From Gemmatimonadota bacterium (GTDB lineage Bacteria > Gemmatimonadota > Gemmatimonadetes > Palauibacterales > Palauibacteraceae), in assembly GCA_039588495.1 (NCBI GenBank), contig JBDGZR010000005.1, positions 1-54,791 on the forward strand: a stretch of 54,791 bases of DNA. The letters are read 5' to 3'. Under the pieces are notes generated by a model. It was given only the letters and a program-made list of their open reading frames with translations, searched no databases and was not told the origin of the DNA. How positions within the stretch are numbered: position 1 is the stretch's first letter; each line of letters begins with the position of its first letter. The translations under genes and the position numbers were made by a program. This document shows, piece by piece, positions 27,572 through 32,888 of the stretch.

Positions 27572-27705
27572 CTCCTATCCTCTCTCTCGTCTACCCTCGC
27601 CCACTCACAGCTTAGACTCCGGACCGGCCTGCCTTATTCCAAGCCGACCTGCGGGTTACGGAATCTCCGGGTAGCTTGCTCAAGCGTATGGGAGGCCCAA
27701 ATCAC

Positions 27706-29256
27706 GTGAGATACAGCTCGAGGGACAGCAGCCCGGTCGACGAGGTCCTGCTGCGGGATCGCGTGCGCCTCTACCTCCAGGTCCTGTTCTTCATCAACCT
27801 GGCTTTCCTGGCGGCCTCGATCTCGTTCCGGGCTCTTGGCCTGGAGGGAGACGAGGTACACGAGGTCGCGATGGGCCAGCGGATCGTCGGCTATTCGATG
27901 ACGGCGTTGCTGGGTGTGGGCTGGTGGTATACGGCTCGTGGGCGACCGTCACGGGGAGTGCTTCACGCGCTCGAGGCGCTGGGCACGGTGGCGATGGTGC
28001 TGGCTTACACTGCCATCATGAAGATGGCCCCGATCCCCGAAGGTCGGTTCATCGGGCTGCTTCTCGTCTGCATGGTACTCGTTCTTCGAGCGGCCCTCGT
28101 CCCGAGCGCGGTGGGGCGCACGCTGGTCGTCGGCCTGCTGGGGGTCGCGGTCGCCGTGGCGAGCAGCCTCGAGATCGACAGCGACGCACCGATCCAGCAC
28201 CAGCTGTGGTTCGGCGTGCTCGGACTGGCGTTCGTCACGGTGACCGCGGTCACCTCCTCGGTGATCTACGGACTGCGCAGGGAGGTGCGGGCGGCGCGTC
28301 GACTCGGCCAGTACGAGCTCAACCGGAAGATCGGCGAGGGCGGGATGGGCATCGTCTACGAGGCGACGCACGTGATGCTGCGCCGGCCAACGGCCCTGAA
28401 GCTCCTTCCGATCGAGAAGGCGGGAAGGGAGACCGTCTCGAGGTTCGAGCGCGAGGTCAGGCAGACCAGCCGTCTCGAGCATCCGAACAGCGTGTACATC
28501 TTCGACTACGGCCGCACTCCGGAGGGCCAGTTCTACTACGCCATGGAGTATCTGGACGGCTTCGACCTCAAGGATCTCGTGGCGCACGAGGGCCCGCTCG
28601 GCGAGGCTCGAACCAGCCTGGTCCTGCGACAGGCGGCGCGCGCCCTGGCCGAGGCGCACGCCATGGGGCTCGTTCACCGCGACATCAAGCCGTCGAACAT
28701 CATGCTATGCAGCCGAGGCCAGGTTCCCGACACGGTGAAGGTTCTCGATTTCGGCCTCGTGAAGGCGGTGGATGACGGAGGCGGCGACGACCTGTTGACC
28801 AGGGCGGGGACGATCGTCGGGACACCTCACTACATGGCTCCCGAGACCCTCAGGAACACGGTCGACATAGGACCCGAAGCGGATGTCTACGCCCTGGGCG
28901 CGGTCGGGTACTTTTTGCTTACGGGCCGGCACGTGTTCGAGGGCGATTCGGTCGTCGAGGTCTGCGCGCAGCACCTCAAGGACCCGCCTCGGCCGCCGTC
29001 GAATTACCGCGAGGAGCCGGTGGACCCGGGGCTTGAGGCGCTGATCCTGCGCTGCCTGGAAAAGGACCCGGCTGACCGGTTCGCCTCCGGTGCCGAGCTC
29101 GCCGACGCGCTCGAATCTTTCGAGATCCCGGGCTGGGGCCGCGAGGAGGCCGGTAGATGGTGGCAGGCTCACCGGCCGGCGCGGGAACAGCCCGAAGGTC
29201 CCGAGGGGGAGATGCGGCCTCACCTGGACATCGATATGGCGGCTCGGAGCGACTGA
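27706..29256 (+). CDS. Hanks-type Ser/Thr kinase with multi-TM N-terminus
   Basis: IGEGGMG, ALKL, HRDIKPSN, DFG, GTPHYMAPE; GGAGG plus GTG 27706 (ATG 27688 alternative). Confidence 0.9.
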   Translation: MRYSSRDSSPVDEVLLRDRVRLYLQVLFFINLAFLAASISFRALGLEGDEVHEVAMGQRIVGYSMTALLGVGWWYTARGRPSRGVLHALEALGTVAMVLAYTAIMKMAPIPEGRFIGLLLVCMVLVLRAALVPSAVGRTLVVGLLGVAVAVASSLEIDSDAPIQHQLWFGVLGLAFVTVTAVTSSVIYGLRREVRAARRLGQYELNRKIGEGGMGIVYEATHVMLRRPTALKLLPIEKAGRETVSRFEREVRQTSRLEHPNSVYIFDYGRTPEGQFYYAMEYLDGFDLKDLVAHEGPLGEARTSLVLRQAARALAEAHAMGLVHRDIKPSNIMLCSRGQVPDTVKVLDFGLVKAVDDGGGDDLLTRAGTIVGTPHYMAPETLRNTVDIGPEADVYALGAVGYFLLTGRHVFEGDSVVEVCAQHLKDPPRPPSNYREEPVDPGLEALILRCLEKDPADRFASGAELADALESFEIPGWGREEAGRWWQAHRPAREQPEGPEGEMRPHLDIDMAARSD

Positions 29257-29329
29257 TATGCCTGGATTCCCGCCTACTATGTGCCGTCGCCCTCTACCTG
29301 TACACCTGTACACCTGGAGGGCGAGGTAC

Positions 29330-30073
29330 ATGAGTACGAACAGCAGGCGCAGGTGGCTGGCCGGTCTGCTGCTGGCAGTCGCAGGCTTAGGCCTCTTCTC
29401 GTCCCCGCTCCACGCCCAGGAAGAGGACCGCGAGCCGAAGGACGAGCTGGGCATCTGGCTCATGTACTTCGGCAGGAACCGGTTCTCGGACAGGTCGAGC
29501 TTCCATTCCGAGCTGCAGCTTCGCCAGTGGGAGCTGTTCCAGAACTACAACCAGCTTCTCGTTCGCGTCGGCTACAACTTCGATATCAACCCCGACAACA
29601 TGGCCACGGCGGGCTACACGTTCGTGGACACCTCGCCCTTCGACGACACCGGGCTATCGACGAATGAGCACCAACTCTGGCAGCAGTTCCTGCAGCGAGC
29701 GAAGCTGGGCCGCGTCGCCTTCGAGCATCGATTCCGGGTCGAAGAGCGCTGGATCCTCGGGAATGCGGACACGAACTTCCTCGTGCGGCTTCGCTACCGC
29801 CTCCTGGTGAACGTGACGCTGGGCCGGCCGGCCACCTTCCCCTTCTTCCTCAGCTTCTACGATGAGGTGATGGTCAACCTCCAGGGCGACGCGTTCGACC
29901 AGAACCGGCTGTATGGCGCGTTCGCCTACGCACTCGACGACAGGGGTTCGAGCGTGCAGGTCGGGTACATGCTCAATACGTTCAGCGGCGAGAACCGGAA
30001 CCGCCTGCAGGTGGCGTTCTTTTTCAATCCGGACCTGCGGCCCGGATCCGGACGCCAAGGAAAGGCGCAGTGA
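29330..30073 (+). CDS. DUF2490 outer-membrane beta-barrel protein
   Basis: Signal peptide; EHRFRVEERW, RLRYR, YDEV..N, FDQNRLYG. Confidence 0.85.
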   Translation: MSTNSRRRWLAGLLLAVAGLGLFSSPLHAQEEDREPKDELGIWLMYFGRNRFSDRSSFHSELQLRQWELFQNYNQLLVRVGYNFDINPDNMATAGYTFVDTSPFDDTGLSTNEHQLWQQFLQRAKLGRVAFEHRFRVEERWILGNADTNFLVRLRYRLLVNVTLGRPATFPFFLSFYDEVMVNLQGDAFDQNRLYGAFAYALDDRGSSVQVGYMLNTFSGENRNRLQVAFFFNPDLRPGSGRQGKAQ

Positions 30074-30128
30074 TGATCACCGCGCCGGAAGCAAGGAGAC
30101 ACGGAAACGCGGAGACACGGAGCAGCGA

Positions 30129-30917
30129 ATGACAGGAGCTGACCAGCAGGCCTCGCTCGAGGGCGTCCTCAAGGACGAGATCCTCCGCATGTATCAGGAG
30201 GTCGCCGACAATCCGGACGCCGAGTTCCACTTCTTTCACGGCCGCGAGGCGGCGGAGATGTTCGGCTACGATCCCGAATGGCTCGACCGCGCGCCGGCCG
30301 GCGCCGTCGATTCGTTCGCCGGGGTCGGAAACCCGCACGAGCGGGCGGAGCTGAAGCCGGGCGAGACGGTTCTGGACCTCGGGAGCGGGGCCGGGCTCGA
30401 CGCGATCATCTCCTCCTGGCGGGTCGGTCCGGAGGGAAGGGTGATCGGCGTCGACCTGAACCCATCCATGTGCCGGAAGGCGCAGGCGAACCTCGCGGCG
30501 ACCGGCGGCGCGATGGAATGCCACGAGGGCCGGATGGAGGAGATCCCCCTTCCGGACGCCTCCGCCGACGTGGTCATCTCGAACGGCGTCGTCAACCTCT
30601 CGTTCCAGAAGCGCCGGGTGGTTGAGGAGATGTTCCGGGTGCTCAAGCCCGGCGGCCGGATCTCGATTACGGACATCGTGAGCGGCCGGGAGCTCTCTCA
30701 ATCGATCGTCAACGACCCCAAGCTCTGGGCCGCCTGAATAGGAGGAGCTCTCCTGGAAGGAGAGATGTTCGAGTTGCTCGAGGACGCCGGCTTCACGGAC
30801 GTGCGAACGGCCGTCGTGCCTGGCTTCCAGTTCAGGAAGGAATCGACCCGGAACGCGGCGGAGGAGTATGGCGTGAAGGCGGTGATGATCATGGCCGCCA
30901 AGCCGGCCGAGGGCTGA
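30129..30917 (+). CDS. Selenocysteine-containing ArsM-like SAM-dependent methyltransferase (Sec at TGA 30735-30737, 262 aa)
   Basis: VLDLGSGAG, ADVVISN, RVLKPGG; LWAA-TGA-IGGAL matches ArsM W..CI.GA; the frame continues 59 codons; SECIS-like hairpin follows. Confidence 0.85.
30748..30764 (+). promoter_or_regulatory. Putative bacterial SECIS hairpin
   Basis: CUCUCCU-GGA-AGGAGAG, a perfect 7-bp stem starting 10 nt after the UGA, with a G-led loop. Confidence 0.75.
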
Positions 30918-30941
30918 GGGCGAGGAAAGAGAGGTGCTCGC

Positions 30942-32888
30942 ATGCACAAACCGGCAACGACAATCGCTGCCGCGTGTTTGACCGTTTCGCTGGTGGGGCT
31001 CTTCTCGGCGGCCTGCTCGCCCGGCCCGGAATCGACCGGAGCGCCGGGGGAGCTGGAGGAGACGATCGTCTACAGCACCATCCGGCCGGCGAACTGGGAC
31101 CTTTACCTGTTCGACGAAACCGGCGCCGCGCCGCAGCCCCTGACGACAAGTCCCTCGCCCGACTACAACCCGGTGTTCTCTCCGGATGGCCGGTGGGTCG
31201 TCTTCACGTCGGACCGCCATGGCACCGCCGACCTGTTCGCGCTCGATCTGAGTAGCCCCGGGGAGCCCCTGAGGCTCACCTCGAGCGACGCCATGGAGGA
31301 CGCCGCCGCATTTTCTCCCGACGGACGACAGTTGGCTTTCGTCAGCACGGCGACCGGGGATCCTGACATCTTCGTCATGCCGTTCCAGCCGGAAGGGCCG
31401 GGCACGGCAGCCGGCGCTGTCAACCTCACGCAGAACGAGGGAGGCGATTTCAACCCGGCGTTTTCCCCCGACGGCGAGTGGATCGCCTTTTCCAGCAATC
31501 GGGCGACGCCCGATGACCTCTTCTGGTCGGCCGGGGCGCCGGACGACTACAGGGCCGGCGACGTCTTCGTGATGCGGCCGGACGGGACGGATGTGAAGAG
31601 GCTCACCGAGGACCCGGGCTGGGAGGGGTCTCCCGCCTGGGGCCCCGACGGCACCCTGTACTTCTACTCGCAGCGTGAGGGTGACGCGGCGGATCGTGAC
31701 GCGATCTCGGAGTCGGTCGGCTCCGGTGGGCTGATCACCCGGATCTACCGGATGAACGCGGACGGATCCGGGCTCGAGGCGGTCAGCGCGAGCGGCGAGA
31801 GCGCTCTTTCCCCCGCAGTCGTCACCGACGGCCGCGTCGCGTTCTCGGCGTTGCGCGACGGCAGGTGGACGATCGTCTCCTCCGAGCCCGACGGTTCGGA
31901 CCTCCGTGTAGAGGGTGATATGGAGCGCGACTACTGGGCACCGGCGTACGATCCGAATTCCGGCCGCATCGTCGCATTCGGACCGGGAGAGGACGAGCCG
32001 GCGACCCGCTTCGAGACCGACGCGCCGGGACCGTTTCTCGCGAACCCGCCGCACAGCGTGGAGCTGCCCGATCGCAGGCTGAAGCTCCACGCGGTCCGAG
32101 GCTATCTCCCGACACTCGACCCGGAGGCAGGCGAGGTAGCCACGAGCGAAGGCTTCAGTCGTCTCGTGGTCAGCCGGCTGGATGGAACGAACAAGCGAAT
32201 CGTCTTCGACAGCGCAGGAGAGGATCGTTATCGGGGAGACCTCGGGGTGTTCGGCCCCACCTGGTCGGATGACGGCGCCTGGCTCGCGTTCGGCGTCGGG
32301 CTACCGTTCTCACCCGTTGCGGACGTCGACATCTGGAAGAGCCGCGCCGATGGCACCGAGGCGGTGAACCTCACTCCCGATTCCGATGCCAACGACGCGC
32401 TGCCGGATTTCTCCCCGGACGGCCGGCGCATCGTCTTCCGCAGCACGCGGGACGGGAACAAAGAGATCTACCTGATGAACGCCGATGGAACCGGCCCGCG
32501 GCGCCTGACGGAGTCGGAGGCGACGAACACGATGCCGTCGTTCTCGTCGAGCGGAGACCGCGTAGCCTTCGTGTCGACGCGCGACGGAGACTACGAGATC
32601 TATATCGTCGACCTGGCGGAAGATGGGAGCCCCGGCACGCTTCAGCGGATGACGAACAGCCCGGGCCGCGACATGCACCCGAAGTTCTCGCCGGACGACA
32701 AGTGGATGCTGTTCGCCTCCCAGCGCGGGGGCTTTGGCGACGAGGTGCCGCTGCTCAGGGTCATCTTCCAGCCCCAACCATACGGAGAGGTGTTCGCGAT
32801 GCGCCTGGAGGATGGCGAGGTCTTTCGCCTGACCCAGAACAAGTGGGAGGACGGACCGGCCGCGTGGGGACCGTCTCCGGGCAAGTGA
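30942..32888 (+). CDS. TolB-like/PD40 beta-propeller lipoprotein
   Basis: Lipobox SAAC; many P.FSPDG repeats. Confidence 0.85.
   Translation: MHKPATTIAAACLTVSLVGLFSAACSPGPESTGAPGELEETIVYSTIRPANWDLYLFDETGAAPQPLTTSPSPDYNPVFSPDGRWVVFTSDRHGTADLFALDLSSPGEPLRLTSSDAMEDAAAFSPDGRQLAFVSTATGDPDIFVMPFQPEGPGTAAGAVNLTQNEGGDFNPAFSPDGEWIAFSSNRATPDDLFWSAGAPDDYRAGDVFVMRPDGTDVKRLTEDPGWEGSPAWGPDGTLYFYSQREGDAADRDAISESVGSGGLITRIYRMNADGSGLEAVSASGESALSPAVVTDGRVAFSALRDGRWTIVSSEPDGSDLRVEGDMERDYWAPAYDPNSGRIVAFGPGEDEPATRFETDAPGPFLANPPHSVELPDRRLKLHAVRGYLPTLDPEAGEVATSEGFSRLVVSRLDGTNKRIVFDSAGEDRYRGDLGVFGPTWSDDGAWLAFGVGLPFSPVADVDIWKSRADGTEAVNLTPDSDANDALPDFSPDGRRIVFRSTRDGNKEIYLMNADGTGPRRLTESEATNTMPSFSSSGDRVAFVSTRDGDYEIYIVDLAEDGSPGTLQRMTNSPGRDMHPKFSPDDKWMLFASQRGGFGDEVPLLRVIFQPQPYGEVFAMRLEDGEVFRLTQNKWEDGPAAWGPSPGK

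Follow-up and report, generated by a model that had tools for sequence, protein, structure and literature searches.

A predicted selenocysteine-containing ArsM-like methyltransferase of Gemmatimonadota that retains a single chalcogen at the metalloid site

ArsM-type methyltransferases that contain selenocysteine (Sec) have been predicted before. In its list of selenoproteins, a 2026 review gives 'arsenite methyltransferase, NF008823, UxxG' above the heading 'Predicted with high confidence' and cites Fomenko et al. 2007 (PMC13188914), and the relevant part of a further source lists the same UxxG Sec arsenite methyltransferase family, again from Fomenko et al. 2007 (PMC9312934). The table of the review also contains three fused families, NF041537 (ArsM/AhpD-domain selenoprotein), NF041536 (ArsM/DUF2284) and NF047649 (methyltransferase/UXPK-star double selenoprotein), which it attributes to Haft and Tolstoy 2025 (PMC13188914). 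According to a passage in a paper on human AS3MT, Fomenko et al. also proposed mouse Cys157 and Cys207 as active-site residues. Here we examined a gene at positions 30129-30917 of a 54,791-nucleotide stretch of a Gemmatimonadota genome (assembly GCA_039588495.1, contig JBDGZR010000005.1; the whole stretch is called the window below). An initial annotation had read this gene as a hidden selenoprotein, an S-adenosylmethionine (SAM)-dependent ArsM-like methyltransferase that retains only the Sec site, and had stated that proteins of this sort were predicted before, which the review entries bear out.

The window protein shares the motif U-I-G-G and the parent family NF008823/PRK11873 with the UxxG selenoprotein family, from which it differs in that its Gemmatimonadota orthologues are annotated as 202-203-residue 'methyltransferase domain-containing' proteins and carry no selenoprotein label. 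Unlike members of the three fused families, it has no AhpD domain, no DUF2284 and no C-terminal Sec tail; it ends at residue 262 with no extra domain and scores far below their cut-offs (212.4 bits against 510 for NF041537, 183.7 against 575 for NF041536 and 179.4 against 460 for NF047649). The gene is an unannotated member of a selenoprotein family that is known already and routinely cut short in databases.

On re-reading the sequence, all coordinates and motifs that had been given for 30129-30917 were correct, as was the perfect hairpin noted 10 nt downstream of the TGA. The features of the gene are as follows.

30119..30122, + strand: possible ribosome-binding site GGAG, 6 nt 5' of the ATG (sequence only)
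30129..30917, + strand: complete coding sequence, stop codon included, of the predicted selenoprotein, an ArsM-like SAM methyltransferase of 262 residues with Sec203 (translation)
30129-30131, + strand: start codon ATG (read from the sequence)
30324..30326, + strand: GTC, Val66, at the Cys position of ArsM GCGNP (alignment to 5evj)
30369..30395, + strand: VLDLGSGAG, residues 81-89, SAM-binding motif I of class I methyltransferases (Pfam alignments)
30471-30473 and 30519-30521, + strand: codons of C115 and C131 (sequence)
30585..30587, + strand: GGC, Gly153, at the Cys position of ArsM SNCV (alignment to 5evj and 5eg5)
30735..30737, + strand: in-frame UGA, codon 203, read as Sec; the motif U-I-G-G is UxxG
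30748..30764, + strand: hairpin resembling a selenocysteine insertion sequence (SECIS), with a 7-bp stem CUCUCCU/AGGAGAG and loop GGA, starting 10 nt after the UGA
30748-30754, 30755-30757 and 30758-30764, + strand: hairpin parts CTCTCCT, GGA and AGGAGAG (perfect 7-bp stem, 3-nt loop)
30915..30917, + strand: true stop codon TGA (translation)

Codon 203 stands in the context LWAA-TGA-IGGAL, and the frame remains open beyond it (LLEDAGFTDV...GVKAVMIMAAKPAEG) up to the second TGA at 30915-30917. With translation table 11, the list of open reading frames (ORFs) holds a frame ending at 30737 plus a 50-codon ORF at 30765-30917 in the same frame.

The TGA is conserved throughout the orthologues. A six-frame search of 401 Gemmatimonadota genomes yielded 46 places in 45 genomes (E <= 2.2e-99, 65-100% identity), all with the TGA inside; the alignment reaches residue 258-262 in 41 of them, and the remaining five are truncated on one side, in one case at residue 223, where the contig ends. 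We assembled 76 distinct orthologues (62-100% identity) from sets of 30 and 15 loci and 35 from a scan of 185,579 species genomes, minus four duplicates. At the aligned codon, TGA is found in 30/30, 15/15 and 35/35 of these sets and in 76/76 distinct genes, with no reversion to Cys. The terminal stop varies (TGA 16, TAG 10 and TAA 4 among 30 orthologues), whereas the internal codon is TGA in all 30. Sequence beyond the TGA evolves as coding sequence: variability at the three codon positions is 0.105/0.076/0.345 after it and 0.089/0.063/0.335 before it, and synonymous to non-synonymous differences number 8418:5486 and 28668:15973, respectively. The I-G-G that follows is invariant and varies only synonymously (ATC 55, ATT 17, ATA 4, and all four GGN codons for each Gly). 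Aligning more distant homologues at codon 203, the check that had been proposed for this gene, gave TGC or TGT at this column in 43/45 sequences of 41-49% identity, which come from archaea and a range of bacterial phyla; the remaining 2 have TGA.

The hairpin is also constrained. The stem bases pair in 99.2% of cells of the orthologue alignment, and at the top pair the 74 distinct rows show C-G (34), U-A (34) or U-G (6), with none unpaired. At this pair the U-to-C change turns Leu into Pro, and the change opposite it, GAA to GAG, is silent. Codon choice in the hairpin departs from that elsewhere in the same genes: the stem Ala is GCT in 75/76 orthologues vs 145/2213 (6.6%), the stem Gly is GGA in 76/76 vs 234/1792 (13.1%), and the hairpin Leu is CTC in 76/76 vs 665/1384. 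RNAalifold, unprompted, predicted six of the seven stem pairs. Bacterial SECIS elements, as reportedly defined by Zhang and Gladyshev in 2005, have a stem-loop just 3' of the UGA and a G in the apical loop, and the hairpin fits this description, with its stem of 7 bp beginning 10 nt past the UGA and its GGA loop. We do not claim a longer lower helix containing a bulged A (columns 15-19 / 38-42), because only 78.9% of it is paired, two of its five pairs are invariant G-U and one is mostly unpaired; nor do we claim a small additional hairpin that RNAalifold placed over the UGA.

The genome that carries the window (G000) is a metagenome-assembled genome (MAG) of 210 contigs, 74.55% complete, and it contains selB (334.3 bits, cut-off 242), a tRNA-Sec (61.3 bits; called SeC with anticodon TCA by ARAGORN) and selD (356.1 bits). 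Its selD (L001, contig C135:3-920) is itself a selenoprotein gene with a TGA at GAG-U-ACK; it starts at the contig edge and its N-terminus is missing. The initial annotation had named, as the outcome that would count against it, a genome without Sec machinery and homologues that never show TGA; this genome has selB, tRNA-Sec and selD, and the orthologues show TGA in 76/76 cases. The reading as a hidden selenoprotein is supported by the conservation of the TGA, by the way the codons beyond it evolve, by the constraint on the hairpin, by homologues with Cys in this column and by the Sec machinery genes of the genome. We consider it very probable, from comparative sequence and model evidence, that the UGA at codon 203 is decoded as Sec and that the product has 262 residues, not 202.

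The 262-residue protein is an ArsM-type methyltransferase by family and predicted fold. Pfam assigns residues 76-220 to Methyltransf_31 (E = 3.5e-26), the nearest NCBIfam model is NF008823, arsenite methyltransferase (214.7 bits, under the cut-off of 263), and a sequence comparison with solved structures places ArsM chains first (5evj, E = 1.9e-26). An AlphaFold model from a 58-row alignment had a mean pLDDT (predicted local distance difference test) of 96.5, and when it was compared with the PDB by Foldseek, each of the 13 best matches was an ArsM/AS3MT structure (template modelling (TM) scores of 0.61-0.74 over 230-252 columns). Canonical ArsM/AS3MT (5evj, CrArsM; 4fr0 and 6cx6, CmArsM; 8xt7, human AS3MT) shares this fold, both in the N-terminal lid and in the region that follows the Sec, as well as the SAM motifs. 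In the model, strand 80-84 is followed by the glycine loop of motif I, of which G87 and G89 are invariant in alignment A4; Sec203 lies in a loop after helix 197-201; and the elements after the TGA are helix 210-220, strand 223-229, helix 238-247 and strand 250-257. Across the 76 orthologues, G153, K161, R170, D182, W200 and U203 never vary, nor do H34, H37 and Y47 in the 73 orthologues that cover them.

Two of the three cysteine positions of canonical ArsM are replaced. V66 is aligned under the Cys of GCGNP in 5evj, the position named C72 in the titles of CmArsM entries (5eg5 shows Ala there because it is the C72A mutant). G153 is aligned under the Cys of SNCV in 5evj and 5eg5, which we take to be C174 of CmArsM. 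Codon 203 is aligned under the Cys of 'geCLgGAL' in both structures, within the C(I/L)xGA motif of canonical ArsM; it is C224 in the title of entry 5jx7, and the Cys at this position in solved ArsM is an As-binding residue. Position 66 is Val in 75/75 orthologues with a residue there, and position 153 is Gly in 76/76. The alignment to solved ArsM thus agrees with the earlier claim that Sec is the sole canonical ArsM chalcogen left: the protein has an ArsM fold with intact SAM motifs and a single conserved chalcogen at the metalloid site, Sec in this case. Two further cysteines, C115 (helix 112-125 of the model) and C131 (strand 129-133), are not aligned with ArsM catalytic positions; both are Cys in 68/76 orthologues and both are absent in the other 8. 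On these alignments the pair is lineage-specific and not part of the catalytic core, and it may form a disulfide or a metal pair. C115 and C131 were considered as substitute catalytic cysteines and rejected, as both are absent in 8/76 orthologues and in the wider clade.

This pattern of positions is shared by a much larger group of proteins. A HMMER search of 1.84 billion representatives gave 842 matches at E <= 1e-30, of which the top 150 were typed. The canonical type (69 of 150) has C at 66 and 153, a Cys-rich N-terminus without the FHFxxGR motif, and Cys203 in 68; the other type (62, including the window protein) has Gly153 and mostly the FHFxxGR motif in the N-terminus. Of these 62 proteins, 33 have Cys203, 22 end exactly at residue 200-202, as expected if a TGA follows, and a few have G, W, R or E. 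A FastTree tree built from 135 representatives splits the canonical from the one-chalcogen type with a single change, where support values are mostly weak and the trait columns were kept in the alignment. It is therefore likely, judging by sequence, that the 262-residue protein is no canonical three-Cys ArsM but a member of a large sister clade that spans archaea and numerous bacterial phyla. We use the working name 'one-chalcogen clade' for this group, which is not a curated family. The clade is marked by an N-terminal FHFxxGR, Val or Thr at 66, Gly153 and a single Cys or Sec at 203, all of which the window protein has.

Gemmatimonadota hold several kinds of these proteins. One is the window's orthologue group (GVGNPH / SNGV / U-IGGAL), and another is a second TGA paralogue group (GTGNPF / SNGV / U-IAGAL) at 40-48% identity with 14 loci (L065-L067, L070-L079 and L081), 9 of which end in a conserved 'L-x-C' tail that could provide a resolving cysteine. 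The phylum also holds two Cys forms without the other ArsM cysteines, as well as canonical three-Cys ArsM, including L082 on another contig of the window's own genome. Outside the phylum, the NF041537 members L169 (590.6 bits) and L170 (512.3 bits) have Val66, Gly153 and TGA203, so the one-chalcogen pattern is already present among curated selenoproteins; they have a Cys two residues before Val66, where the window protein has Ala. Also in another phylum, L173 and L174 (genomes G411 and G430) are ArsM-like TGA genes with a second TGA near the C-terminus, and L173 ends in U-K-P-K-stop, matching the 'UXPK-star' in the name of NF047649. Six orthologues at 74-79% identity (L089, L092, L098, L099, L103 and L118) are in MAGs labelled Akkermansiaceae, Acidobacteriota, Eisenbacteria and KSB1, which could reflect horizontal transfer or binning error. 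One orthologue (L064, G029:C3; also P0275) is without the first 52 residues and continues an upstream kinase/tetratricopeptide repeat (TPR) frame, with 1004 residues to the TGA; this junction may represent a genuine fusion or an artefact of the reading frame.

Fused forms were typed by residues 66, 153 and 203. Among canonical long proteins (n=98), GNAT/ArsN2 is found in 37, an ArsR-type helix-turn-helix (HTH) in 4, LMWPc in 2 and ACR3 in 1; two canonical fused proteins carry CMD domains, both with the ArsD family among the listed Pfam domains. No arsenic-related domain was found in the 22 long one-chalcogen proteins. Their partners in the long-protein search were a complete class-V aminotransferase of the cysteine-desulfurase type (Aminotran_5; in 6 proteins, for two of which Pfam confirmed it), DsbA-like thioredoxin (2), MerC (1), OsmC (1), CMD/AhpD (1) and DUF2652 (1). 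The representative search gave one-chalcogen fusions to TusA (3), MerC or MerTP (3), DsbA-like domains (2) and DUF2652 (3); one TusA fusion, P0157, has Ala, not Gly, at position 153.

Gene neighbours pointed the same way in that, across 80 loci, no ars gene was among the recurrent neighbours, so the window protein differs from canonical ArsM in being without arsenic gene context. Beside 45 Cys-form or distant loci we found extracytoplasmic function (ECF) sigma factors (15), zf-HC2 anti-sigma factors (9), DsrE-like proteins (8), OsmC (7) and ChrR-type cupins (7), often with a second methyltransferase nearby; an eighth OsmC adjoins a locus of the orthologue group. Eleven loci (L120, L122-L125, L127, L133, L134, L137, L144 and L158), which are Cys forms of Halomonas, Aromatoleum, Streptomyces and others, share the order methyltransferase, ECF sigma, (zf-HC2), second methyltransferase, with the zf-HC2 anti-sigma labelled in 7/11. 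From gene order, the ECF sigma and second-methyltransferase arrangement at Cys-form loci suggests a stress regulon.

We consider it probable that the gene encodes a Sec-decoded, ArsM-fold protein of the one-chalcogen clade, and this, together with a tentatively proposed chalcogen-type substrate, is the best overall explanation of the data. SelB and tRNA-Sec would decode the UGA at codon 203, guided by the hairpin 10 nt downstream. Considering that Sec is strictly retained in 76 orthologues, residue 203 is marked as the catalytic atom, and Sec203 would hold the substrate atom covalently beside the SAM methyl group. Two of three ligands are missing, so arsenite bound by three enzyme thiolates is excluded. 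The substrate would be a sulfur or selenium species present as a selenenyl-sulfide or selenenyl-selenide (persulfide/perselenide-type) adduct on Sec203; SAM would methylate the Sec-bound atom, and a second thiol would then release the methylated product. In relatives, this second thiol could come from a fused domain (TusA, DsbA or AhpD) or from a Cys/Sec tail at the C-terminus, whereas the stand-alone window protein would use a free cellular thiol. We favoured this cycle because the arsenite ligands are lost and because relatives are fused to sulfane-sulfur carriers or thiol-redox partners, some with Cys/Sec tails. By analogy, a sulfur or selenium species held on Sec is the most likely substrate, a choice that we make tentatively and at less than even confidence. 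The suggestion in the initial annotation that the substrate may not be arsenite is plausible, and it was strengthened by the 0/22 arsenic fusions and by sulfur/selenium and thiol-redox partners and neighbours, which fall short of proof.

A broader claim, that the one-chalcogen clade as a whole is a persulfide/perselenide methyltransferase and thus a so far undescribed enzyme class, seems doubtful to us. On that proposal, a cysteine desulfurase, TusA or DsrE-type carrier would deliver sulfane sulfur or selenium to the Cys or Sec, and after methylation by SAM a resolving thiol would free methanethiol or methylselenol. A full-text literature search for 'persulfide methyltransferase' found none. 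MddH, MddM1 and MddM2, for which cytosolic SAM-dependent methylation of small sulfur species is described, offer a functional analogy only (PMC11445057, PMC12904073). They were rejected as relatives, being UbiE/UbiG-family enzymes; the two papers mention neither ArsM nor arsenite, and their passages on these enzymes describe no catalytic Cys or Sec.

The simplest alternative, that the TGA is a real stop, so that the gene is a nonsense pseudogene or encodes a 202-residue protein with ORF 30765-30917 separate or untranslated, is scarcely credible. It would account for the 116 of 120 best database matches that have 202-208 residues, as gene callers stop at TGA; an in-frame ATG does lie ten codons past the TGA, and the gene's true stop is likewise TGA. 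A nonsense mutation, however, would not persist in 76/76 genes across several families of the phylum, the stretch of nine codons that separates the TGA from the ATG is conserved at the protein level and varies synonymously, and Cys homologues run straight through the codon 203 column. The ATG itself is replaced by CTC, GCG, CTT or GTC in 6/76 genes, so re-initiation there is not a conserved alternative, and a 202-residue product would lack both of the strands modelled beyond codon 203. A real stop is thus already contradicted by the comparative sequence data. If Sec is accepted, the enzyme might still be an arsenic or antimony methyltransferase, in which Sec would provide a single ligand, the others coming from thiols of the glutathione type or from methyl groups already on the substrate; its substrate would be an As(SR)2-type conjugate or a methylated trivalent arsenical, MAs(III) or DMAs(III), needing fewer enzyme thiolates. 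This fits the 13 best structural matches, the nearest NCBIfam model and the location of Sec exactly at the As-binding cysteine position, and a two-cysteine ArsM was reportedly described by Huang and colleagues in 2018. A precedent is TtArsM (TTC0109) of Thermus thermophilus, a SAM methyltransferase that is reported to function with a single cysteine and to make MMA and DMA (the mono- and dimethylated products) from arsenite in vitro (PMC8649762). According to the same account, TtArsM is evolutionarily distant from ArsM, is regulated by ArsR/SmtB and is not a selenoprotein, and its lone Cys, C77, is N-terminal to the SAM motif GxGxG and not at the position kept here (PMC8649762). In addition, ArsR, ArsN2, ArsC-type and ACR3 domains, common among the 98 canonical proteins, are found in 0/22 fused one-chalcogen proteins, ars genes are not among the recurrent neighbours in 80 loci, a canonical three-Cys ArsM (L082) is kept in the same genome, and the score stays under the NF008823 cut-off. 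We regard an arsenic or antimony substrate as unlikely on this evidence.

Less likely again is that the enzyme methylates an unrelated small molecule or macromolecule (at C, O, N or a thiol), with Sec as a redox switch or general nucleophile. The fold is that of a generic class I methyltransferase, and the Cys forms lie beside ECF sigma/zf-HC2 pairs and OsmC, as expected of an oxidative or thiol stress regulon. However, only one residue of the ArsM metalloid site is kept, and it is this residue that the whole clade holds constant as Cys or Sec; Sec in 76/76 orthologues without reversion to Cys fits a catalytic role better than a regulatory one. Moreover, cysteine desulfurase and TusA (as fusions) and DsrE-like proteins (as neighbours) carry sulfane sulfur, not organic substrates.

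Several results weigh against the explanation that we prefer, that of a Sec-decoded member of the one-chalcogen clade acting on a chalcogen-type substrate. At the RNA level, folding of the 76-nt stretch 30725-30800 found the hairpin with ordinary energy (z = 0.39; 131/200 shuffles fold as well) and was not counted as evidence, and Rfam in permissive mode gave no family match over 30650-30900. Covariation is limited to one base pair, with 4-6 independent pairs on the gene tree and none opposed, and a sign test on the independent covarying pairs was not significant (median p 0.25). The hairpin lies within coding sequence, so constraint on the stem overlaps with constraint on the protein. The initial annotation implied selA/B/C/D in this genome, and selA, unlike the other three, was not found in the only 74.55%-complete assembly. 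It is above the cut-off in 5/5 close relatives carrying the orthologue, in 320/401 genomes of the phylum and in 43/44 other orthologue-carrying genomes, where G185 is not listed and the tally comes from two search lists; the selA tallies include four genomes flagged as unpublished (G057, G097, G157 and G182), none of which carries the orthologue or bears on any claim made here. Regarding function, the cysteine-desulfurase fusions have FNFxxGR and Ala66 and therefore represent a divergent branch. The Gemmatimonadota orthologues themselves have no conserved neighbour and no fused partner: within 1.5-kb flanks the best neighbour cluster occurs in only 4/30 loci, and within 6-kb flanks the best are a 316-residue ORF (6/35), FAD_binding_4 (5/35) and a major facilitator superfamily (MFS) protein (5/35), none of them conserved. 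What we propose about function is thus carried over from relatives that share <=49% identity. Finally, as the Thermus enzyme is reported to methylate arsenite with one cysteine, a single chalcogen does not exclude arsenic (PMC8649762).

Within the window, the methyltransferase gene is flanked by three genes, none of which is conserved beside the orthologues.

27676-29256: membrane Ser/Thr protein kinase
29294-30073: DUF2490 protein
30942-32888: PD40-repeat beta-propeller protein

An antisense ORF of 688 codons (window 30024-32090, - strand) overlaps the methyltransferase gene and the next gene. High-GC DNA typically shows such ORFs, and there is no support for a gene here.

Databases hold these proteins in shortened form. 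In a collection of 5.8 billion proteins, the 116 short sequences among the 120 best matches cover 75-77% of the query, and the names given by the sources are 'methyltransferase domain-containing protein [Gemmatimonadota]', 'SAM-dependent methyltransferase' and 'arsenite methyltransferase'. One JGI entry of 271 residues has W at the Sec column, presumably from a gene call under another code. Likewise, P0003 and some representatives have W or G at residue 203, most likely from code 4 or 25 gene calls on short contigs.

A Sec-containing ArsM-like protein is itself no surprise to a specialist, and what is new here is the clade-level separation from ArsM and the associations with sulfur trafficking. 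The mis-annotation is systematic: the database entries of a protein widespread in Gemmatimonadota lack the final 60 residues, including the two strands modelled after the TGA, and selenoproteome counts of this soil phylum are too low. The protein and its Cys relatives are named arsenite methyltransferase or UbiE, yet they are without two of the three arsenite ligands, and homology-based surveys of arsM genes may count a different enzyme. The retention of Sec203 offers a clear target for assays. If the persulfide/perselenide reading of the clade is true, thousands of 'arsenite methyltransferase' or 'UbiE' proteins would be misnamed, and the Sec forms of Gemmatimonadota would represent a route, so far unrecognised, by which sulfur or selenium is volatilised or detoxified in soils.

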